NCBI GenBank assembly: GCA_964527645.1
Contig: CAZGQK010000002.1
Coordinates: 24,022 to 88,021, forward strand
Length of the DNA: 64,000 nucleotides
Source of the DNA: an uncultured Legionellales bacterium
GTDB lineage: Bacteria > Pseudomonadota > Gammaproteobacteria > CAZGQK01
Direction of reading: 5' to 3'
Shown one piece after another: positions 19,009 to 63,602 of this stretch. How positions within the stretch are numbered: the stretch's first letter is position 1; each line of letters opens with the position of its first letter. The notes under the pieces were generated by a model that was not told where the DNA came from, made no database searches, and saw nothing but the letters and a program-made list of their open reading frames with translations. Position numbers and translations under genes: made by a program.

Positions 19009-19136
19009 GTGATCAAGTCGCGGGATGACGGTATAAAGGAACCAGCCGTGGTCAAGCCACGGTACGTGTTTTTAAAAAATAGCGCAACAAAGCCAGGGGG
19101 CAAAAGAACCCCTGAATCCCGTGGTCAAGCCACGGG
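19009..19136. repeat. cluster of REP/MITE-like short palindromic elements
   Basis: GTGATCAAGTCGCGGGATGACGG (19009-19032), CCGTGGTCAAGCCACGG (19046-19062) and CCCGTGGTCAAGCCACGGG (19118-19136). The same unit types recur at 41674-41862, 45001-45150 and 63627-63680. Confidence 0.8.
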
Positions 19137-34265: not shown

Positions 34266-34517
34266 AATACCCTTTATCCATTTGTGCGTTAAACAATCTC
34301 GCCGTGCCTAGCAACGACAATCCTCATGCATTTATCCGATTTTAAATCCATCGGCTTAACAACCCGGCAGCAAGCCGCCGAAATTGTTTACTTATTTTAC
34401 TTCGCCTACGCGGGAGACCCGTACTGTCGGCAAGCAAAAGGAAGTCTTTCATAACTCCTTTGCAATCTCCATCGATCTTGCCTCCCTGACAAGAGGGGCC
34501 ATTATACAACACCTCTA

Positions 34518-38592: not shown

Positions 38593-39477
38593 TTATTGGT
38601 TATCCTCAACCTGTGCACGCACCTCATCGGCAAAATTTTGCGTTGCTTTTTCAATCCCTTCACCGACCTCAAAACGCACAAACGCTTCAATTTTGGCGTT
38701 GTCATTTTTTGCCAATAAATCGGCAACCGTTACTTCCGGATCTTTTACAAAGGGTTGGCCCAGCAAACTGTTTTCTTGCATAAATTTCTTCATGCGACCC
38801 ACTACCATTTTTTCAATAATATTATCTGGCTTGCCACTTTCTTTGGCTTGCGCAAGATAAATATCTTTTTCACGCGCCAGTAGTTCAGCTGGAATATCAT
38901 CCCCACCAATTGCTTTTGGATTGCTCGCAGCAATATGCATAGCAATATCTTTCGCCAATGCTGGATTATTTTTATCTAAGGCAACTAAAACACCAATACG
39001 ATCACCGTGCAGGTAAGCACCTACAACGCCACTGGCCTTTATCCAAGCTAAACGTCGAGGTTTTACATTCTCGCCAATTTTAGCCACCAAAGCTTGGCGC
39101 GTTTGCTCCAATGTCTCGTCGCTACCTGATGCTTTTGGCAATTGCATTAATGCGTCGATATCCTGCGCTTTTTCCGTCAATGCGCGCTCAACCAATAATT
39201 GGGCAAATGCACGGAAATTGTCATCGCGCGCAACAAAGTCAGTTTCTGAATTAATTTCTAGCAGCAGACCTTCCAAACCAGAAACTGCTTGCAACACTAC
39301 GCCTTCGGCGGCAATTTTATCGGCACGTTTAGCTGCTTTAAGCTGACCGCTCTTACGCAAAAAATCAATCGCCGCTTCAATGTCGCCTTCAACTTTAACC
39401 AGCGCTTTTTTACACTCCATCATGCCAGCACCCGTACGTTCACGTAATTCTTTCACTAATTTGGCTGTAATGGCCAT
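38593..39477 (-). CDS. tsf: elongation factor Ts
   Basis: [27 protein letters not shown]-like N-terminus; 294 aa. Confidence 0.96.
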
Positions 39478-39506: not shown

Positions 39507-40694
39507 TTAAGCCTCATCTTTAGGCGTTTTCTCTTCTGTCTTTTTTGCCGTGGTTTTTTTCGCAGGTGCTTTTTTAGCTGTGCTTGCCTTGGCTGTGGTT
39601 TTTTTAGCAGCGATTTTTGTCGCTGTGCTTGCCTTGGCCGTGGTTTTTTTCGCAGCCGTTTTTTTCGCTGTGCTTACCTTGGCCGTGGTTTTTTTAGCAG
39701 CGGCTTTTGTTGCTGTGCTTGCCTTGGCCGTGGTTTTTTTCGCAGCCGTTTTTTTCGCTGTGCTTGCCTTGGCCGTGGTTTTTTTACCAACCGTTTTTTT
39801 AGCGGCCGGTTTTTCGGCCTCTTCTTTCTCTACTTTTTTAACCATTTTCACCGTTTTGATTTTTGCTGGCGCTTTTTTCTCTGCTGACGATTCAGCTGCT
39901 TTTGCAGCCGCAGGTTTCCCTGCTTTATCGGCAACTTTCGCAGTAGGCTTTTTCATCACTTTAATAGCAGCCGCCGCTTGTTTAGCCGCTTGTTCCGCTG
40001 CTCTTTGCTCCGGTGTGCCACGCACATCGTTAATCGCTTCGGCAATCGCATGACAATACAAACGAATAGCACGCGCACCGTCATCATTACCCGGCACCAT
40101 ATAATCAATGCCTTCGGGTTTGCCATTAGTATCCACGATCCCAACTACTGGAATTTTTAAACGATTGGCTTCTTGCACCGCAATTTTTTCATGACCCACG
40201 TCAATGATAAAAATAGCATCCGGCAAACCGCCCATATCCTTGATGCCCGACAAGCAAGCGGATAATTTATCTTTTGCCCGCATAATGCTTAATTTTTCTT
40301 TTTTAACTAATTTTTCAAACCGTGGACCTTCGATAGTCTCAGTTAATTCTTGTAATCGTTTAATAGAACGACGAATCGTTTTGTAATTGGTGAGCATGCC
40401 ACCCAACCAACGATAATCGACATAGGGCATGCCACAACGAATCGCTTCTTCGCGCACAATATTGCACGCCGCATGTTTGGTGCCGACAAATAAAATCTTG
40501 CCACCTTTACCCGCTGTATTCGCCAAAAATTGTAGCCCGCGCTTAAACATTGGCAGCGAATATTCTAAATTGATGATATGAAGTTTGTGGTGAATCCCGT
40601 AAATATAAGGTGTCATCTTGGGATTCCAGGACCGAGTCTTGTGTCCAAAATGTACACCGGCCTCGAGCATTTGACGCATGGTCACTTGTTTCAT
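39507..40694 (-). CDS. rpsB: 30S ribosomal protein S2 with ~150-aa Lys/Ala/Thr-rich repetitive C-terminal extension
   Basis: S2 core ([19 protein letters not shown] ... [12 protein letters not shown]) is colinear with the 241-aa E. coli S2. It continues in frame with [10 protein letters not shown]...([15 protein letters not shown])n...[10 protein letters not shown]. Start set at [10 protein letters not shown] (40694), preceded by GAGGAG. Confidence 0.93.
39545..39795. repeat. in-frame 45-bp tandem repeat (about 5.5 copies, 90-bp higher order) encoding the S2 tail
   Basis: The plus strand reads GCTGTGCTTGCCTTGGCCGTGGTTTTTTTCGCAGCCGTTTTTTTC reiterated with few substitutions. It encodes TAKASTA(K/T)K(T/A/I)AAKKT units on the minus strand. 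Confidence 0.9.
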
Positions 40695-40862
40695 TGCTTT
40701 CTCCTCAGGGTTAAGCCTCCACACGCCCAAAACCTTGACCCAAAGGGCACCCCAAGCTTTTGTTGTCGACATGTGTGTGTCGTTTCGTTAATAACATTTG
40801 CTAAATCTAGCGCTGCTTTATACCATAGATGGCCAACAACAACAACGCAAGCAGGAAAACTC

Positions 40863-41651
40863 ATGGCCGTTGACATTAAAAGTCCAGAAGATATCGTGAA
40901 AATGCGTGCTGCCGGACGCCTAGCTGCCGAAGTCTTGCAGATGATTGGCCCACACGTACAGGCGGGCATCACCACTGAAGAATTGGATCAAATCTGCCAC
41001 GACTACATTATCGACAAAGACGCCATTCCTGCACCATTAAATTACCGCGGGTTCCCCAAGTCCATCTGCACCTCCATCAACCAAGTGGTTTGTCACGGCA
41101 TCCCGGGGCCAAAAAAGCTCAAAGATGGTGATATCATTAATATAGATGTCACGGTAATCAAGGATGGTTTTCACGGTGATACCAGCAAAATGTTTTTTAT
41201 CGGCAAGACCCTACCCATCGCCCAGAAGCTTGCTCGAGTAACGCAAGAATGCCTCTATCTCGGCATCCGCCTGGTCAAACCCGGCACACAACTCGGCGAT
41301 ATCGGCGCCACCATCCAAAAACACGCCCATAAAAACGGCTTCTCCGTAGTGCATGAATACTGCGGCCACGGCTTAGGACGCCAGTTTCACGAACAACCCC
41401 AAGTGCTACATTACGGCACCAGCGGCACCGGCATGGCATTGGAGACCGGCATGACGTTTACCATCGAGCCAATGATCAACTTGGGCAAACGTCACATCAA
41501 ACAACTCGGCGATGGCTGGACGGTGATCACCAAAGATCGCCGCTTATCCGCGCAATGGGAACATTCCCTAGCCGTCACCGCAGATGGCGTGGAAGTGCTA
41601 ACTCTGCGTGATGATGAAAACTTAGAGACCATCTTTAAGCAGAGTTTTTAG
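40863..41651 (+). CDS. map: type I methionine aminopeptidase
   Basis: MAVDIKSPEDIVKMRAAGRLAAEVL, VCHGIPG, DIINIDVT, HEYCGHG; 262 aa. The track ORF has a spurious 95-codon 5' extension antisense to rpsB. Confidence 0.95.
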   Translation: MAVDIKSPEDIVKMRAAGRLAAEVLQMIGPHVQAGITTEELDQICHDYIIDKDAIPAPLNYRGFPKSICTSINQVVCHGIPGPKKLKDGDIINIDVTVIKDGFHGDTSKMFFIGKTLPIAQKLARVTQECLYLGIRLVKPGTQLGDIGATIQKHAHKNGFSVVHEYCGHGLGRQFHEQPQVLHYGTSGTGMALETGMTFTIEPMINLGKRHIKQLGDGWTVITKDRRLSAQWEHSLAVTADGVEVLTLRDDENLETIFKQSF

Positions 41652-41673
41652 GCACGCTTTTTCAACCCCCCAT

Positions 41674-41862
41674 TCGCTATCCTGCGACTTGATTCGGGAT
41701 CCAAAATTTTGCCTACCTTCCTGGATCCCGTGGTTAAACCACGGGATGACGGTCAGAAGATGGATGGGGCACCAAATCCGCCTTAAAACCACCTTCGTCA
41801 TCCCGCAACTTGATTTGGGATCCCCCCCCCACCACCATCCTCCGCGCAGGCGGGGGATGCAG
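41674..41862. repeat. cluster of four REP/MITE-like palindromic units
   Basis: TCGCTATCCTGCGACTTGATTCGGGATCC; CTGGATCCCGTGGTTAAACCACGGGATGACGG; TTCGTCATCCCGCAACTTGATTTGGGATCC (followed by a C9 run); CACCATCCTCCGCGCAGGCGGGGGATGCAG. Confidence 0.8.
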
Positions 41863-41983
41863 AGTCTAGCCAAGAGCAACACCACCCAAGCCATAGCCAT
41901 GGCTAAACCTTAAGAAAAAATTAATAATATGAATTATTTTCATATCTTATATGATTGGCTTAATTATTTAACAAAAAGTAATT

Positions 41984-42067
41984 CACAGTCCGACAGGAAG
42001 TCCCCGAATAAACTTAGCCGCACCCAATGGGTGCTGAATTTATAGTATTAACGATAGGGGAAATAGT
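41984..42067 (+). promoter_or_regulatory. conserved leader/promoter cassette, copy 1
   Basis: CACAGTCCGACAGGAAGTCCCCGAATAAACTTAGCCGCACCCAATGGGTGCTGAATTTATAGTATTAACGATAGGGGAAATAGT directly abutting the ATG at 42068. Identical to copy 3 except for a 1-nt indel. Confidence 0.75.
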
Positions 42068-44206
42068 ATGCTAGCAGATGCAAAAACACCGCTTCTTACA
42101 GAAAATGACGTAGTCATAACAATCGACAATAGATTTATTCCGGAATCAAGCTGTCCACGGTTTTTGGAACTGGCTGAGGCCTCTACTATTCGCACAGCAA
42201 CCAGTGGAGATTTTTTAGTTAAAAAAAATTCTTCGGATAATCTAACTATCTATGAAGTCGTTGGCTCTGAAAAAGCCCTAGTGATATTAGATAGTGACGA
42301 TGAAGTTGAATTCTATGCTGTGCCTGAAAATTTCGATGGCCCCACCTTTACCACACGTAAGAAAGCCGCTGACCACATCAACGAAATAGCTAAAAAGAAT
42401 AGGTTACCACAGCAAAGCGCCATTTCTAGCGATATCAGCGCACTTCTCTCGGCATCAGGTCCAACAATAGAACTCTTTGTCACGTTGACAGTCATGGTCA
42501 ATGTGTATCGCGCACTAGTCAACGGTGAAAAAAATACTGAGATAACAGGCAATGCTTATTTAATTTTGACAGCTTTTACCTTATTTTATTGGCCTATTAA
42601 ATGGTTACAAACATCAGCAAATTTGGGTGTTCGTTCCGGTGTTTCACCAAAACTATTAAAGTATCAGTGCATGGTAATGTTTATTAGTGCTATTATTCCG
42701 TTCCGTGAATTTTTGACTGATTTCACAGCACTAACAGCAGCTGGATTTGAACACGGCCTTCTGAAACCCCATAATAACACCTCTAGCACCAACGAAAATG
42801 ACCCCAAGCAGATAGCCTTATTGATGATATTTGTATTGTTATCGGCAACTCGACTCTTAAAAATTGCTCTTGCAGATATGGCCAATGTCTTTAGAAATTC
42901 TGGACATCCTGTCGCGCAACGGACTCCAAATCCATTGAGAACATTTATGAGTAAAGTGCTTCATTTGGTTGTCGATCGACCGATGGGATTTTTGATGCTA
43001 ATGACTTACCTTGCCGCTTGGTTAAATATTCCTATGTTGCGCTATTATGTCGGAGACACCGCCGCACCAGCGTGTGCTAATATGACCAGTGGAAAAGAAG
43101 CATCACTGCCAAATCAATGGGGGCTTCTCGTAGCCTCAATGGGTGGCGTTTTGTTCGGCCCAGGTGAATATTTTCTATTAACGCTTGGGCATAGCCCGTG
43201 GCTTCGTAAAGCATTAGAGACTATGTTTCCTAATCCCCATAAACATCATAATTATTTAAAAAGCATTGGTGATTTCACTGATCGAACCGGCCCAATCTAT
43301 AAAATGATGGACTACTCTACCAAATTACAATTACGAATTCTTAGATTGCTGTGTATTTTTAATGGAAAAAACCCCATTGCAGAGCGAATGAAACTGCATC
43401 ATATACAAAAATCATTGTTTCGTGGTGGCATGTTTCTGGGTGTGGCCGCTCAATTATTTACATTGTTCGTGTTTGGAACGATTGTGTATTGTAGGATTGA
43501 TGAATCAAAGATGCCTGAATTTTTTGCTACACTTGCAACGATGTTAGCTGCCGGTCTTTTCAATGGATATAAAGAGTTTCAAGAACCTGCACGCGAGATG
43601 GTCTTTCAGTTATGTGCAAAACACCCTAGACACATCGGCGTTTACTTTATGTCAGAGGCTGGTCAACAAACATTAACTGAACACTTACATAAAAAAGTAA
43701 AGGCCGATGAAACCCTCACCGACAACGAAATTCTTCTACAGAGTGAGTTAGGCAAACAAACTGATATCATTTTGAGGATAACGAATGAGTTGCCCGATGC
43801 TGGTATTACTAATGCGACAGCTAAGGAATTTATAAACCAAGTGTCAACTGCACTCTCAAACGAGGAAGAAGCTGAGGAGGAGGACGAGAGTGGGAAATTA
43901 TCAAAAATTATCAAAGCGCTGCTGCCCTCTGAAAACGCTGCTTCTGCAAAACGATTAGAAGACCTGTGTGTAGAATATGCAAAGTGCCTAACAACTCTAT
44001 TTGATCTATCTACTAGCGTAGCGGCAGAACAAATGCCAAAACAGTTGTCTGGGCGTTGTGGCATTGTTTCCTGGTTCTCGCCCGATAATAAAGGTGTTCC
44101 CTATAAGGAGGATGGCACTGTAGACCCTGACGAGCTAATCAAGATGCAAATACACCCTGAAACTTCCACTAACGTCATTGCACTTAGTGGCCCGCTAAAT
44201 AAGTAA
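42068..44206 (+). CDS. ORFan polytopic membrane protein (712 aa): soluble N-domain, ~8 TM segments, soluble acidic C-domain
   Basis: Long ORF with SD AGGGGA. Hydrophobic segments occur at about residues 131-151, 160-180, 198-226, 247-268, 303-322, 349-372, 450-472 and 482-498. The C-terminal ~200 aa are hydrophilic with an EEEAEEEDE block. No family recognised. Confidence 0.75.
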   Translation: MLADAKTPLLTENDVVITIDNRFIPESSCPRFLELAEASTIRTATSGDFLVKKNSSDNLTIYEVVGSEKALVILDSDDEVEFYAVPENFDGPTFTTRKKAADHINEIAKKNRLPQQSAISSDISALLSASGPTIELFVTLTVMVNVYRALVNGEKNTEITGNAYLILTAFTLFYWPIKWLQTSANLGVRSGVSPKLLKYQCMVMFISAIIPFREFLTDFTALTAAGFEHGLLKPHNNTSSTNENDPKQIALLMIFVLLSATRLLKIALADMANVFRNSGHPVAQRTPNPLRTFMSKVLHLVVDRPMGFLMLMTYLAAWLNIPMLRYYVGDTAAPACANMTSGKEASLPNQWGLLVASMGGVLFGPGEYFLLTLGHSPWLRKALETMFPNPHKHHNYLKSIGDFTDRTGPIYKMMDYSTKLQLRILRLLCIFNGKNPIAERMKLHHIQKSLFRGGMFLGVAAQLFTLFVFGTIVYCRIDESKMPEFFATLATMLAAGLFNGYKEFQEPAREMVFQLCAKHPRHIGVYFMSEAGQQTLTEHLHKKVKADETLTDNEILLQSELGKQTDIILRITNELPDAGITNATAKEFINQVSTALSNEEEAEEEDESGKLSKIIKALLPSENAASAKRLEDLCVEYAKCLTTLFDLSTSVAAEQMPKQLSGRCGIVSWFSPDNKGVPYKEDGTVDPDELIKMQIHPETSTNVIALSGPLNK

Positions 44207-44243
44207 CAGCAGCATACAAGTTGTCTTAAACATAACTAGAGAA

Positions 44244-44267
44244 ATACCCCCCTCCGGCGGGGGGTAT
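44244..44267 (+). terminator. GC hairpin downstream of the 712-aa ORF (ATACCCCCC-TCCGGC-GGGGGGTAT)
   Basis: Perfect 9-bp stem followed by TTT then A-rich sequence. Confidence 0.5.
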
Positions 44268-44321
44268 TTAAAAAATTATTTGATAACACAACAGCAGACA
44301 AGATCTCGATATATTGATCTT

Positions 44322-44395
44322 CACAGTCCGACAGGAAGTCCCCAAATAAATTTCACCGCACCCAGATGGGTGCTAACTCAGAGTTATTATCAATT
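44322..44395 (+). promoter_or_regulatory. conserved leader/promoter cassette, copy 2 (diverged 3' part)
   Basis: CACAGTCCGACAGGAAGTCCCCAAATAAATTTCACCGCACCCAGATGGGTGCTAAC... The 5' ~55 nt match copies 1 and 3 with a few substitutions. The palindrome arms GCACCCA/TGGGTGC are kept and the spacer is changed. Confidence 0.65.
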
Positions 44396-44963
44396 ATGCA
44401 TGAAAATTTCACCGTAATAATGTTTACAGAATACCGCAGAGTAAAAGGCGGGATAGACCCTTTAAAAGCCCTTAAGCTATTAGGGCCATTTACGGTATCC
44501 ACCTGCACGCGCCATGTATACATACTACATAACCCCACGGAGAAGAAACTAGAACCTATAATTACCTCACTAACACCAACATGCAACTTACAGCGGCAAA
44601 CCGGTCAAGAAGCGTATAAACTTCTACTCATTTGGGCCAGTGGCGGACTCAGCCAAAAAAGAGAATTTTAAGCAAGACTCTCGCGTTGTAGGGCAAATTA
44701 GAGAGGCAATGAACTCTCATGAAAGAAAAACAGCAGAAACATACATCAAGCACAGAAAAGCCTATATGAGTCTGTTTACTTTTTTACTATGTGATATTAA
44801 AAAAATATATGCCGATCGCAATTCTCAGAAATTTCCAAATATTGAAGTAAAAAATAAATTTGTTGTGTCGACAGCAACACAGATTACACAGGAAAGGATG
44901 AAAGACCTTGCAGAAAGAAAAGAAAAACAGTTAACACGCAGTCCACAGAATAGTTGCGCCTAA
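44396..44963 (+). pseudogene. hypothetical gene split into two overlapping reading frames (possible frameshift)
   Basis: The frame starting at ATG 44396 (by analogy with the other cassettes) stops at 44671. A +1 frame is open from 44574 to 44963. The overlap contains an A6 run (44655-44660). No family recognised. Confidence 0.35.
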
Positions 44964-45000
44964 AGAACCTCCAAAAGCCAGGCCACAGATAAAAATAAAA

Positions 45001-45150
45001 CCACCGCCATCCTCCGCGAAGGCGGTGAATCCAGGAAACTATAACCCCCCCATGTACCGCGATTTATTTGCAGTATCCATGCACCGCCCAGGACCCGGGA
45101 TTACAAAAATGACAAGGATTTTTTTTCGTCATCCTCCGCCCCCCCACAAA
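45001..45150. repeat. REP/MITE-like palindromic units (partly degenerate)
   Basis: CCGCCATCCTCCGCGAAGGCGGTGAATCCAGG and TTCGTCATCCTCCGCCCCCCC..., the same family as 41674-41862. They are followed by a very AT-rich spacer. Confidence 0.7.
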
Positions 45151-45398
45151 GGCGCGCGCAAATAATATAAATAATATTTATCCTGTTTATCCTTTTTTTT
45201 AATTATCAATTATTTTAATCACCAATCAAAAATAAATCATTATCTTTTTAAATAAAACTCGCCTATATTGCCTGGAATCTGCCTATAAAAAATGCATCAA
45301 CAGCTTTATATTAAATATTAATATAAGTTATTTGTGGGTACAGAATAAAAATATAGGAATTATTAAGTAACATTTGAAATTGATTTAATTGATTATTA

Positions 45399-45481
45399 CG
45401 GTCCGACAGGAAGTCCCCGAATAAACTTAGCCGCACCCAAATGGGTGCTGAATTTATAGTATTAACGATAGGGGAAATAGT
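45399..45481 (+). promoter_or_regulatory. conserved leader/promoter cassette, copy 3
   Basis: From GTCCGACAGG to the ATG at 45482 it is identical to copy 1, except the palindrome spacer is AA instead of A. Confidence 0.75.
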
Positions 45482-47215
45482 ATGCACAATAGACTTAATC
45501 CGAAACCTGAGAGTAAACAGCCATTATTATCCAACCGCAGTGATGAAGGCGTCATTACGCGTTGCTTAGAAAATGTAACGACCCCCATGAAAGAGGACGG
45601 ACAGCTTGTTTTTACTATTCAACACACTGGCAACGAAATTCCCATGGCATCAGAAGATGACCTAAAAATAATTCTACTCTCAAGTATTGACGGCACATGG
45701 ACTTTAAATAAAAAAGAGCCAAAAGACCTGGTTTTGCCAGAAATATCGCCAATACTAGTGGAGGTTAATAGGAATCATTTAGCTGGAAAATCAGAAAATG
45801 AAAAAGATCGGGCCAATCAATTAATTGCTCGATTGGCTGTATGGCATGCTAAAGATCGCCAAGCACACGTAATAGACCCAAACTTTCGTTGTTTATCAAA
45901 AAAAACGTTCGACACGGTTAAAACTGCCGGTCATGTCGTTGCAGAAGGCTGGCTAAAACCCCTAGGCTGGTTACTTGCAATAGTCTATGCCTATCAAAAT
46001 ATATCAGGTAAATTAGCCAAGGAAGGATCAACCACACCTGAACCATACCCTTGGGAAATACTAGCAGCTTATGCTCTTCCTTTTGTTTTATTGGCCTCTC
46101 AATTAACCTTTATTCAAGGAAACTATGCGCGTGGATCCTTCACAGAAGTAAAACCGAAACAAGCTGCACGGGAATATTGGGATCCACAAACAATAATGGC
46201 GTTACTGCATAAAGAATTTGGCTTTTATGTGGATTTTAACGATGCTGAAACTAGGATAAAAACTGATCGACAAGACATCCCAGCCCTCTGGCTAGAGCCT
46301 AACCATCCGGCCGCGATAAAAGTAGCACGAAGCAGCCGTCTAAACATTGCCGCAGTTGCCGTCACTGAGACAGGTGATGGGGTCGCACTTGCGGTAGTGC
46401 TCGGTAGCCCCATGCTTTCAAAGTTAGGCCCAGTTCCAGCTACGATTATCACAACCATTATTGGCATGCTCGGTGGCGCTGGTGTTAAGGCTGTTGCCGC
46501 TATAGCAAACTCTACCGGTCAGCATTTTACGCTACAAGATGGGGAATATTATTTCAATACTGGGGAGAGACATACCCCTGCGAAGGATCGAAATCCTCAG
46601 GTTATGGGAGGGCCTCTTAAGATGGCACCGCTCTTAACCGTGGCACTACCACTATTATTTAGCGGAGCTCACGCGGCATCAATCCACAATTTGGGCTTAA
46701 CCAGAGAGTTGACGCTCCAACTAATGGCATTGGTCATTCCGGGAAGTCAAATAAAAACCTCTTTATACGATATACCAAGAATAGGTGTAGCTTTAGATGT
46801 TTCCGCAAAAGCCATGGAAGAAACCCCCTACTCCTCAATGAAGGCCGGCAACTCCTCAGCACAACAGCGCACCTGGAAGGATAAGGTAGCGAAAGCCCTG
46901 AGCCTAACTTGGATGCTGCCAAATGAGAATGCAGCAGAATGGAAACATAATCTAGTGATATTCTTAGCAATATCTTCCTACGCACCGGGCCTCTTTGCCC
47001 TTGCCTTTGAAAGTACACTAAACGTAGGTAAACACCTTGTTTTTCCTATGCTACCAGAATTATTAGCAACAGCATTCGAAAGCCTGGCGCCCAACATTTT
47101 ACCAGGGCCTATACTTTCTCAAGCAGGCTTTTTTTCCGCTGTAGTTGGCGCTACCGTAGCATGTCCTCAAAGCCATCAACTATACAAAGTACTAAGAAAT
47201 CGCCAAGTTCAATAA
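45482..47215 (+). CDS. ORFan polytopic membrane protein (577 aa): soluble N-domain followed by multiple TM segments
   Basis: Same SD and leader as the 712-aa ORF. Hydrophobic segments occur at about residues 158-175, 190-212, 287-343, 381-421, 489-510 and 546-560. It shares only a short N-terminal K-x-PLL-[TS] motif with the 712-aa protein. Confidence 0.75.
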   Translation: MHNRLNPKPESKQPLLSNRSDEGVITRCLENVTTPMKEDGQLVFTIQHTGNEIPMASEDDLKIILLSSIDGTWTLNKKEPKDLVLPEISPILVEVNRNHLAGKSENEKDRANQLIARLAVWHAKDRQAHVIDPNFRCLSKKTFDTVKTAGHVVAEGWLKPLGWLLAIVYAYQNISGKLAKEGSTTPEPYPWEILAAYALPFVLLASQLTFIQGNYARGSFTEVKPKQAAREYWDPQTIMALLHKEFGFYVDFNDAETRIKTDRQDIPALWLEPNHPAAIKVARSSRLNIAAVAVTETGDGVALAVVLGSPMLSKLGPVPATIITTIIGMLGGAGVKAVAAIANSTGQHFTLQDGEYYFNTGERHTPAKDRNPQVMGGPLKMAPLLTVALPLLFSGAHAASIHNLGLTRELTLQLMALVIPGSQIKTSLYDIPRIGVALDVSAKAMEETPYSSMKAGNSSAQQRTWKDKVAKALSLTWMLPNENAAEWKHNLVIFLAISSYAPGLFALAFESTLNVGKHLVFPMLPELLATAFESLAPNILPGPILSQAGFFSAVVGATVACPQSHQLYKVLRNRQVQ

Positions 47216-61811: not shown

Positions 61812-63602
61812 ATGCTCAAACTTCACATAGATTCATTTGATCCGTCTGCTTTTATTTTAAAATCTATCGCCATTTACCCCATGACGTTTTCTTTGCCGTA
61901 TCATGGGGTCACCGAGCTGCTCAGCAAATCCATCCTATCACCGATGGCTTTTATTAAAAAAAAATTATGCTTCACCATTGGCAAACCTAAACCACAATAT
62001 CTACATGCTGTCATTACTGGTTGTGAGTTCTTGCCAGCTGAAGACGGCCATTATCGCTATAGGCTTAAATTTTCCTCACCGCTCCGTGGCTTACAATATT
62101 CTCAGCACAAACGTGTCTTTCAACAACAAAGCTTAACACAAATTGCGAAAACTTTATTACAAAAATGGCCTATAACTGATTTACACTTTGACTTACCCGC
62201 AATAAAAATAGCCCATCAAATGCAATACCAAGAAACCGATCTACACTGCTTGAGCCGCTTATTAGCAGATCAACAATGCTGGTATACTTTACAACAATCC
62301 CAAAAATCCATAAAATTATATTTATCCGATGATTTACCAACGCGCAACCACGTGCATCAATTATCCTGCCAAGAAAAAAGTGATTTATTATTTGACCAAC
62401 CAATGCTTTATCAAATACAAAAGAAACGAGCCTTGCAGTATAATCTAGCTAGCATCACCATCGCCGGCAAACAAGCCTCTCTATTAACGATTAAAACCAA
62501 CACCACCGGCTTGCAACTCGGTGATTATCTCAACTTAACCGATCATCCGCAGAAAAAATACAATCAATGTTATCGCATTGTCGCTCTGCGTTTTAATTAT
62601 CGTTTGCGCGATGGCTTGCATAATTGGCAACAAACACTAACACTGACTGAAATCCAAGAAAAATTACACCCACGCAAGCGTTTTAAAAAATCATTTATGC
62701 ACATTTTGCCAGCCAAAGTGATTAACTGGCCCAACACCAATTCAACTTTAAATCACAAAAACTATTATTTGTTACAATTTCCATTTGAAAAAAAAACACC
62801 CCACCCCCCCGGCGAAGGCGTTCCCACCTTGCAACCTTATGCCGACAATGGTCAAAGAAATTATGGCATTCATTGCACGCTCGCGGCACAGACACAAGTC
62901 GCTGTTGGTTTTTTGCAAGGGGACTTCAGTCAACCCTTTATTCTTGGCGTCATTCCTGGCAAAACCCAACCCGGCCCCAGCAATCATAAAAACCCACAAC
63001 AAAACATCCTACAAACCCCGGCGGGTAATTGTCTGAAAATAGACGATGGCAGCCACCCCGCCATCACTTTGGGCAACATCATTCACAAAAATTATCTGCA
63101 ATTAAGTGCAGCGGATAATAGTAAGAAAATTACATTACACAACCAATCCGGTAACATTTCTATTGCAGCAGCGAAAGAGATGGTGATGACAACAGTCGGT
63201 AATTTTTCTTTGCAATGTCAACGACAAATAGTGAATTCTCAAAGCATGCAAATCATCACGCAGCAAGGTGATATTAATCTTTCTGCCGCAAAAGATATTC
63301 AATTAACGGCCAAAGAAGCGATTCGCTGGCAAAGCCATAAAGACATAAACTTTAAATGGCAGGAGAATTTTCACATAAAAGCACAAGATGATTTCTCCAT
63401 GCTGGCTTCTAAGGAATTTAAAATCACCTCAGCGCATGGAAAAATAACACTAAACAGCGGTCAAACTGTTTATCTGCAAGCTAAAGAAAAATTGCACGCA
63501 GGACCCTTGTCGCTAATTAATGGTTCTCTCAACATAAACGCTAAAGCCATTACCTTAGCGGCAGGTGTTATAAATATATTTGGGTTAAATCCTGTGGCAT
63601 GA
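61812..63602 (+). CDS. vgrG: VgrG-like protein (T6SS spike / phage gp27-gp5 fold), 596 aa
   Basis: The N-terminal half follows the gp27/VgrG pattern (Y-R-Y-R-L-KFSSPLRGLQYSQHKRVFQQQSLTQIAKTLL; QMQYQETDLHCLSRLLADQQCWYTL). The centre has FSQPFILGVIPG (gp5 OB region). The C-terminal ~170 aa are a periodic beta-helix-like repeat (ITLHNQSGNISIAAAKEMVMTT...GDINLSAAKDIQLTAKE...GKITLNSGQTVYLQAKE...). Confidence 0.75.
   Translation: MLKLHIDSFDPSAFILKSIAIYPMTFSLPYHGVTELLSKSILSPMAFIKKKLCFTIGKPKPQYLHAVITGCEFLPAEDGHYRYRLKFSSPLRGLQYSQHKRVFQQQSLTQIAKTLLQKWPITDLHFDLPAIKIAHQMQYQETDLHCLSRLLADQQCWYTLQQSQKSIKLYLSDDLPTRNHVHQLSCQEKSDLLFDQPMLYQIQKKRALQYNLASITIAGKQASLLTIKTNTTGLQLGDYLNLTDHPQKKYNQCYRIVALRFNYRLRDGLHNWQQTLTLTEIQEKLHPRKRFKKSFMHILPAKVINWPNTNSTLNHKNYYLLQFPFEKKTPHPPGEGVPTLQPYADNGQRNYGIHCTLAAQTQVAVGFLQGDFSQPFILGVIPGKTQPGPSNHKNPQQNILQTPAGNCLKIDDGSHPAITLGNIIHKNYLQLSAADNSKKITLHNQSGNISIAAAKEMVMTTVGNFSLQCQRQIVNSQSMQIITQQGDINLSAAKDIQLTAKEAIRWQSHKDINFKWQENFHIKAQDDFSMLASKEFKITSAHGKITLNSGQTVYLQAKEKLHAGPLSLINGSLNINAKAITLAAGVINIFGLNPVA

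Follow-up and report, generated by a model that had tools for sequence, protein, structure and literature searches.

Short conserved non-coding elements that act in cis from the leaders of unrelated operons are exemplified by 5′ untranslated regions (5′UTRs) of the JUMPStart/ops type. In Borrelia burgdorferi, a single promoter, operator and leader block—the erp upstream homology box (UHB)—precedes open reading frames (ORFs) of many independent origins and gives their co-expression; the erp family has been shaped by recombination, and its binding proteins are BpaB, BpuR and EbfC (PMC10016077). Here we analysed 64 kilobases (kb) of the genome of an uncultured Legionellales bacterium (contig CAZGQK010000002.1; 'the window' denotes this whole stretch) and found one leader cassette in three same-strand copies, each ending at the start codon of a different unit in an island of orphan genes. 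We put at about an even chance that the cassette is a shared cis-regulatory leader of this three-unit island, kept alike by gene conversion. This is the most economical reading because the non-coding block, ribosome-binding region included, is far better conserved than the unrelated genes behind it. As the block holds the ribosome-binding region and ends at a start codon, at least its 3′ part would be transcribed and act on expression.

By analogy of layout, the Borrelia UHB is the nearest described kind of element, and here too a shared block (81–84 nucleotides (nt) at 98.8% identity) lies before unrelated proteins. The two have no sequence similarity, and they differ in where the block ends and what carries it: the Borrelia block continues into the coding region, with a leader peptide and lipoprotein sorting residues, and is found on multiple cp32 prophage plasmids, whereas the block described here stops at ATGC and occurs as three tandem copies on a gammaproteobacterial chromosome. 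The likeness to JUMPStart/ops elements lies in a conserved leader element upstream of unrelated genes; by direct reading, however, the cassette contains no ops-like sequence (GGCGGTAG), and single genes follow it rather than long operons, with no visible RfaH-type context. The cassette is thus previously undescribed but belongs to a familiar class of elements, in which unrelated genes have an upstream leader in common. The original prediction, made from the letters of the sequence, held that no described element matches. This is correct for sequence and RNA families, and not for kind, given the Borrelia case. Rfam 15 at its gathering threshold recovered only t44 in the window (40710–40797) and no cassette, and a scan of 41600–45600 at E ≤ 10 gave no match overlapping any copy.

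The three copies, each composed of two modules that are described below, are as follows.

41984–42067, + strand: leader cassette copy 1 (module A 41988–42035, module B 42036–42067), ending at the ATG of a 712-amino-acid ORF.
44322–44395, + strand: leader cassette copy 2 (module A 44326–44374), with a diverged 3′ part and an 11-nt gap, ending at an in-frame ATG at 44396.
45399–45481, + strand: leader cassette copy 3 (module A 45401–45449, module B 45450–45481), ending at the ATG of a 577-amino-acid ORF.

These positions and the strand are those originally predicted. Copies 1 and 3 are 98.8% identical over 81 nt with one gap (E = 5 × 10⁻³⁷), and the sole difference, again as predicted, is AA in copy 1 against AAA in copy 3 between the arms of a palindrome, that is, one extra A in the hairpin loop of copy 3. 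Their identity runs from GTCC to ATGC, so the predicted sharp edge at the start codon stands, although it lies one base beyond the ATG. Copy 2 is 90.6% identical to the other copies over 53 nt. It had been said to keep the first ~55 nt; the palindrome arms are indeed kept, but the first ~50 nt are 90% identical, with 5 substitutions. It had also been described as lying only next to its start codon, whereas copies 1 and 3 abut theirs; in fact copy 2 abuts one too, because ATG 44396 is in frame with the ORF at 44366–44671. All three copies share the junction TATGC. The AT-rich DNA that precedes the block cannot be aligned among copies, apart from TTCAC or TTAC and a pyrimidine–purine step at the edge.

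An assembly artefact is an unlikely source of the repeat, because the same gene arrangement is reported on all three recorded contigs that carry these genes, and because the repeat is shorter than the k-mer of 127 that appears in the contig labels of one sample.

Alignment of the copies resolves the cassette into two modules with the following features.

41988–42005, 44326–44343 and 45401–45418, + strand: box GTCCGACAGGAAGTCCCC, with a GTCC-N8-GTCC direct repeat (sequence scan).
42020–42034, + strand: palindrome or hairpin GCACCC-AAT-GGGTGC; also 44358–44373 (loop AGAT) and 45433–45448 (loop AAAT).
42041–42046 and, in copy 3, 45455–45460, + strand: TATAGT, a −10-like hexamer 21 nt before the ATG.
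42056–42061 and, in copy 3, 45470–45475, + strand: Shine–Dalgarno sequence AGGGGA, 6 nt before the ATG; lost in copy 2.

Module A (49 nt) consists of the box GTCCGACAGGAAGTCCCC, in which the repeat reads GTCC-N8-GTCCCC, a 14-nt linker and the hairpin GCACCC-loop-GGGTGC, and it is present in all three copies; the predicted direct repeat was accordingly found in each. Module B (32 nt) consists of TATAGT followed by the AGGGGA Shine–Dalgarno sequence, ends at the ATG and is identical in copies 1 and 3. In copy 2, module A retains 90% identity to copies 1 and 3 (43–44 matches out of 48–49; 4 of the substitutions fall in the linker), whereas module B has 11 matches out of 21 and an 11-nt gap that removes the Shine–Dalgarno sequence (Fisher P = 0.001 for module A against module B). 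The hairpin stems are invariant across copies and the loops vary in both length and sequence (AAT, AGAT, AAAT). The original description of a 7-base-pair (bp)-arm palindrome with a variable spacer therefore needs adjusting: the arms are fixed, but as RNA the element is a 6-bp stem with a loop of 3 or 4 nt (AAU, AGAU or AAAU). Similarly, TATAGT lies 21 nt before the ATG in copies 1 and 3, but is absent from the aligned position in copy 2, which has TATTAT 5–6 nt further downstream instead.

This uneven decay bears on whether the cassette does anything at all. The ordinary promoter or ribosome-binding region of one gene could have been copied or converted recently onto its neighbours, leaving a box and a hairpin with no special role. 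The small number of copies, all three within 3.5 kb, fits such a neutral leftover, as do the lack of conservation outside this genome (the upstream regions of the homologues of the 712-amino-acid protein are without the cassette, their best local match being at chance level) and the lack of any structural or statistical signal past the repeat itself. We nonetheless regard it as improbable: in each of the three units the tract stops at the start codon, the decayed copy 2 keeps module A at 90% with module B near random, and the lone change between copies 1 and 3 sits in the hairpin loop.

The palindrome also contains an ATG (ATGGGTGCT) that opens a short out-of-frame upstream ORF (window 42028–42075 and 45442–45560). 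In copy 1 it reads MGAEFIVLTIGEIVC and then a stop that overlaps the main ATG; in copy 2, the palindrome ATG is the start chosen by gene callers. Because no Shine–Dalgarno sequence precedes it, this upstream ORF is probably not translated, and we rejected it as a functional feature.

Within the window, the cassette is confined to its three sites. The 18-mer GTCCGACAGGAAGTCCCC occurs, with up to 3 mismatches, only at 41988, 44326 and 45401 (0.00 expected by chance); GTCC-N8-GTCC occurs just at the three cassette sites (0.35 expected); and GCACCC-N2–6-GGGTGC occurs only at 42020, 44358 and 45433 (0 expected). For this genome we could extend the search to ~77 kb (the window with ~8 kb of left flank and ~5 kb of right flank), using blastn-short, a profile search (nhmmer --max) and an unfiltered covariance model of module A. 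By each method there were no copies beyond the three, which were recovered with E values of 1 × 10⁻²² to 1 × 10⁻³⁰, and the next best matches were at chance level; a weak covariance-model match at 34360 proved dissimilar on inspection. No cassette was found in the GTDB species genomes (one genome per species), JGI metagenomes, IMG/VR, PLSDB or INPHARED, and blastn against the latter two returned nothing relevant. Exact matches to the 18-mer were found in 22 stretches of the GTDB species genomes and 21 of the JGI metagenomes. We attribute these to chance, as all lie in DNA of 59–76% GC, mostly in apparent coding sequence, and none is accompanied by the palindrome; the one 18-mer match in IMG/VR was likewise by chance. 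The exact hairpin CCGCACCCAAATGGGTGCT, followed by a run of T, is present in several low-GC phage contigs of IMG/VR (L053, L055, L056 and L061), where it resembles an intrinsic terminator; we consider this coincidental.

These searches also bear on a dispersed mobile repeat of the MITE, REP or Correia type, with an outward promoter and three copies here by chance, as an origin for the cassette. This genome does contain short palindromic REP-like elements (core GTCATCC..), several of them in intergenic DNA and two flanking the island units. Their sequence is unrelated to that of the cassette, which has no terminal inverted repeats, no inverted partner or opposite-strand copy in the 64-kb window, no extra copy in ~77 kb by the three methods and no match in the five public collections; the three copies are in the same orientation and each is fused to an ATG. 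A mobile repeat is therefore very improbable. Copies away from gene starts, named beforehand as the sign of a REP or MITE element, were seen neither in ~77 kb nor in the public collections. Neither the scanned ORFs of the window nor the genes called in its flanks include a recombinase. In all, nothing suggests mobility: of the predicted shared regulatory module or mobile cassette maintained by gene conversion, the shared leader with gene conversion is the most economical, and the mobile part is unsupported.

The REP-like palindromic family is an observation in its own right. Its core, GTCATCC(C/T)(C/G)CG, has 8 matches in the window against 1.5 expected, of which those at 19019, 41740, 41797, 45006, 45128, 63645 and 63667 are apparently intergenic and that at 39220 is inside a coding region. 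Elements of this type also span 41829–41862 and 45001–45034, and several are clustered in the spacers that flank the island units.

The arrangement, in which a conserved imperfect-palindrome repeat separates orphan ORFs on one strand of a marine gammaproteobacterial genome, also recalls an integron cassette array with its attC sites. We rejected this assignment. By direct reading, no copy contains GTTRRRY/RYYYAAC core sites (copy 1 lacks any GTT), and there is no intI integrase among the annotated ORFs. Furthermore, the cassette carries a Shine–Dalgarno sequence and abuts an ATG rather than following the preceding ORF, and the island units are separated by long AT-rich spacers and a terminator-like hairpin.

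How the cassette might act depends on where transcription starts. That it is a 5′UTR in which the Shine–Dalgarno sequence is sequestered has, in our estimate, an even chance or slightly less. Transcription would start at the pyrimidine–purine step on the left edge (CA, CA and CG), driven by the AT-rich DNA upstream, such that the whole block would be 5′UTR. In the RNA, the CCCC of the box would pair with the GGGG of the Shine–Dalgarno sequence and close the ribosome-binding site, with the invariant GC hairpin enclosed within this long-range helix. A trans-acting factor (a protein or small RNA) at the box or at a mini-hairpin within it, or a physical cue such as temperature, may then free the Shine–Dalgarno sequence, so that translation of the island genes would be co-regulated. 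Two AT-rich tracts, noted by direct reading, are likely to be the promoter, or a silencing region, if the cassette is a 5′UTR.

45160–45396, + strand: very AT-rich tract upstream of copy 3.
41905–41983, + strand: shorter AT-rich tract upstream of copy 1.

Several observations led us to favour this 5′UTR model: the pairing between CCCC and GGGG, the pyrimidine–purine step at the left edge of all copies, −10-like hexamers just upstream of the block (TATATT at −16 in copy 2, GATTAT at −10 in copy 3) and the lack of a −35 partner for TATAGT. When the RNA is folded from the left edge, the Shine–Dalgarno GGGG pairs with the box CCCC with a probability of 0.98 in copy 1 and 0.65 in copy 3, and the helix is also present in the centroid structures. 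At a distance of 15–19 nt upstream of TATAGT there is no −35-like hexamer (candidates match at no more than 2 of 6 positions), and a σ70 consensus scan for −35 and −10 hexamers at 16–18-bp spacing returned no + strand match within the cassettes or immediately ahead of them; an activator-dependent promoter inside the cassette is possible. The flexible centre of the palindrome, the stems being invariant and copies 1 and 3 differing only in the loop, argues for a hairpin over a dimeric operator.

The alternative at the level of DNA is that the cassette spans approximately −66 to +15 of a regulated σ70-type promoter, with TATAGT as the −10 hexamer, transcription starting near 42053 and 45467, and a messenger RNA leader of ~15 nt with an open Shine–Dalgarno sequence. 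The palindrome, at approximately −26, would be the operator of a repressor or MerR-like activator, and GTCC-N8-GTCC, at approximately −66 to −51, an activator site. Lying 21 nt before the ATG, TATAGT agrees with the consensus in 5 of its 6 bases, and copy 2 has a hexamer of equal quality, TATTAT, a few bases downstream of the aligned position. Activator-dependent promoters typically lack a −35-like hexamer, as the cassette does, transcription-factor sites usually take the form of direct repeats or palindromes, 84 bp is about the size of a compact promoter, and the RNA folds are no more stable than shuffles. Set against these points, the half-site spacer is 1 nt in copy 1 and 2 nt in copy 3, both copies being functional-looking, and dimeric DNA binders usually tolerate a change in half-site spacing poorly. 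The GTCC repeats are phased at 12 bp, off the spacing of OmpR/PhoB-type direct repeats, for which 10–11 bp is typical. The distance from palindrome to −10-like hexamer grows from 6 to 11 nt in copy 2, and no regulator gene adjoins the island. We consider this promoter-and-operator arrangement to be nearly as likely as a 5′UTR and well ahead of any other alternative.

A number of points weigh against sequestration in a 5′UTR and, in part, against a maintained leader in general. The start site is one that we infer from the edge step. The folds have z scores of −0.80, −1.26 and −0.92 (copies 1–3) relative to shuffles, and so show no added stability, and the stems show no covariation, every stem position being invariant in the three copies. 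By our estimate, a CCCC would fall by chance within ~60 nt upstream of a GGGG Shine–Dalgarno sequence with a probability of ~0.1–0.15. The original prediction saw a −10-like hexamer upstream of each copy; this fails for copy 1, which has none at the matching position, and applies to copies 2 and 3 only. In copy 2 the CCCC of the box persists although no GGGG is left for it to pair with, which implies either that the box has or had a role beyond pairing with the Shine–Dalgarno sequence, or that module A was refreshed by gene conversion. TATAGT (5 of 6) at a workable distance from the ATG, together with the direct repeat and the palindrome, also fits a compact regulated promoter. Finally, three copies from a single genome do not allow selection to be told apart from recent copying.

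Other signals were sought in the cassette by direct reading. CIRCE/HrcA, σ54, σ28, σ32, ECF-type and phage-type RNA-polymerase promoter motifs, and nut-like boxA and boxB, were all rejected owing to misfits in sequence or spacing. The terminator scan did not call the cassette hairpin, the tail of which is TGAATTTA in copies 1 and 3 and TAACTCAG in copy 2.

The 5′UTR model has two families of described counterparts. Anti-Shine–Dalgarno leaders, among them RNA thermometers and translational riboregulators, share with the cassette the predicted long-range pairing of CCCC with GGGG (probability 0.65–0.98). The cassette differs from them in having no ROSE or fourU-type motif and no Rfam match, and in that its helix, of 4–5 bp closing a ~50-nt loop, has a stability not above that of shuffles. 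The second family comprises the leaders controlled by CsrA-type regulators, which two reports describe as binding GGA-containing hairpin loops and repressing translation (PMC13443453, PMC4894983). The cassette has one GGA that could be presented in a mini-hairpin loop (GAC-AGGAA-GUC) and another that overlaps the Shine–Dalgarno sequence (GGGGAAA), with positions 41996 and 42059 in copy 1 and 45409 and 45473 in copy 3; copy 2 has one only. The mini-hairpin, of 3 bp, can be drawn for the box as RNA but is not the predicted fold, in which UCC pairs with GGA instead. Two GGA motifs compare with ~0.6 expected per 81 nt (Poisson P ~ 0.12), and no csrA gene was seen in ~77 kb, an uninformative span for this purpose. 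CsrA-type control, which had been proposed for these motifs, is possible but gains no support from these counts.

A more novel outcome is a long shot, even when its two forms are taken together. In the first, the cassette could be an undescribed leader RNA, combining box, hairpin and anti-Shine–Dalgarno pairing, that senses a factor and gates the translation of orphan, possibly secreted or membrane, proteins genome-wide. In the second, it could be a portable promoter or 5′UTR cassette that is copied precisely up to the ATG before unrelated genes by an undescribed mechanism.

The near-identity of copies 1 and 3 points to recent gene conversion, or copying, that involved only the leader. Duplication of whole genes is excluded as its source, because the coding sequences share no detectable homology and the homologues of the 712-amino-acid protein lack the leader, and recent conversion or copying is consequently needed. 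That identity ends at the ATG may reflect a tract confined to sequence that the copies have in common and that is under constraint, implying selection on the leader. That module A has survived better than module B in the decayed copy 2 may be due to a partial conversion tract or to an independent function of module A.

Recombination could, alternatively, be the primary function of the repeats, through programmed deletion, amplification or cassette switching, or with the palindrome (1–2-nt centre) as the core site of a recombinase. The direct repeats of 81–84 nt, 3.4 kb apart, exceed the minimum for RecA-dependent recombination, usually quoted as ~25–30 nt, and inverted arms around a central dinucleotide (here AA or GA) recall the sites of serine recombinases. 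As all copies are direct repeats, switching by inversion is impossible. The palindrome arms are only 7 bp, the gene scan that revealed no recombinase applies here too, and no deletion or rearranged variant was found among the three recorded contigs. We regard recombination as a most improbable primary role. The repeats nevertheless predict loss of the 3.4 kb between copies 1 and 3.

The island of three tandem units is flanked by map and a cyclophilin gene. The t44 RNA and rpsB lie upstream of map on the opposite strand; past the cyclophilin gene is an AcrAB-type pump, and the wider window is otherwise housekeeping. The island itself contains the following features besides the cassettes.

42068–44206, + strand: 712-amino-acid orphan protein with hydrophobic helices and two clear relatives among 1.84 billion representative proteins.
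44247–44264, strand unassigned: GC-rich terminator-like hairpin with T-runs, after the 712-amino-acid ORF (the scan flagged the − strand; the + strand T-run is by direct reading).
44366–44963, + strand: middle unit, comprising ORFs 44366(44396)–44671 and 44640–44963 in different frames, which overlap at an A6 run (44655–44660).
45482–47215, + strand: 577-amino-acid orphan protein with several hydrophobic helices.

Searches for protein homologues found no relatives of the 577-amino-acid protein or the middle-unit ORFs. For the island ORFs, Pfam, NCBIfam, PHROGs and PADLOC gave no meaningful match; the single weak family match, to NCBIfam, was for the second middle-unit ORF (ORF2b) and was below threshold (E = 0.015, 14 bits). 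AlphaFold models of the two large proteins were poor (pLDDT 34 and 45) and unusable. The original prediction that the proteins after copies 1 and 3 are unrelated was borne out, as was the greater conservation of the non-coding block than of the genes it precedes. BLASTP between the 712- and 577-amino-acid proteins gave E = 0.32, and profile hidden Markov models found no match even at E ≤ 1,000. The K-x-PLL-[TS] motif noted near both N termini is not significant, as 546 of 5,000 shuffles score as well or better. Paralogy of the two proteins is ruled out by these three tests.

The cassette is absent from the upstream regions of both homologues of the 712-amino-acid protein, so the leader is not ancestral to this gene family. 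A motif common to those regions, TA(T/C)AGTATTAA, was rejected as chance-level (884 of 3,000 shuffles score as well).

The middle unit is probably one orphan gene of ~198 amino acids broken by a frameshift, which at the A6 run could represent a pseudogene, slippage-prone phase variation or a homopolymer assembly error. With its Shine–Dalgarno sequence lost and its ORF frameshifted, copy 2 looks decayed together with its unit. The island units are probably separate transcription units, given the terminator-like hairpin after the 712-amino-acid gene; if that hairpin does terminate this gene, the copy 2 unit would need a promoter of its own.

Should the cassette be a true control element, the fast-evolving orphan membrane proteins behind it would form a small regulon in a marine gammaproteobacterium that has no close sequenced relatives. 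It would also be a clean natural case of non-coding homogenization beside coding sequences that share nothing; because the edges of the tract would be the presumed transcript start and the start codon, the homogenized leader would be a convenient test case for gene conversion and selection on regulatory DNA. The layout of box, hairpin and anti-Shine–Dalgarno pairing makes a directly testable model of riboregulation. As things stand, its wider importance is limited, the element being known from a single lineage.

That lineage is phylogenetically isolated. At 90% identity, each of the ribosomal proteins S15 and S2, RbfA, Map, inorganic pyrophosphatase and AcrB is a singleton among ~15 billion proteins, and the consequent lack of close sequenced relatives accounts for the absence of comparative material. 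The matching metagenome contigs derive from SAMN05992386 and SRR5007147, and one is labelled as PRJNA352798 marine metagenome; papers that draw on this project describe Mediterranean water-column samples. The t44 RNA between map and rpsB (RF00127; − strand, 64.2 bits, E = 5.5 × 10⁻¹²) supports a gammaproteobacterial origin. Just past the right end of the window (L049 4424–4723) is a gene for a small protein of the Coxiella-named CBU_0592 family.

Two other genes of the window are unusual. The rpsB ORF (39507–40772, − strand; called as 395 amino acids in public assemblies) has a long C-terminal extension rich in lysine and alanine, with a weak match to the Pfam family HC2 (histone H1-like). The extension is encoded by a 45-nt tandem repeat at 39547–39800, with a 15-nt sub-period, 5.6 copies and 86% match. 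A lone VgrG-like ORF (61812–63602, + strand) adjoins rpsO and pnp, and the 5 kb past the window contain no further genes for type VI secretion; the N-terminal domain of this ORF matches TIGR01646 and TIGR03361, and a public gene call labels it Phage_GPD.

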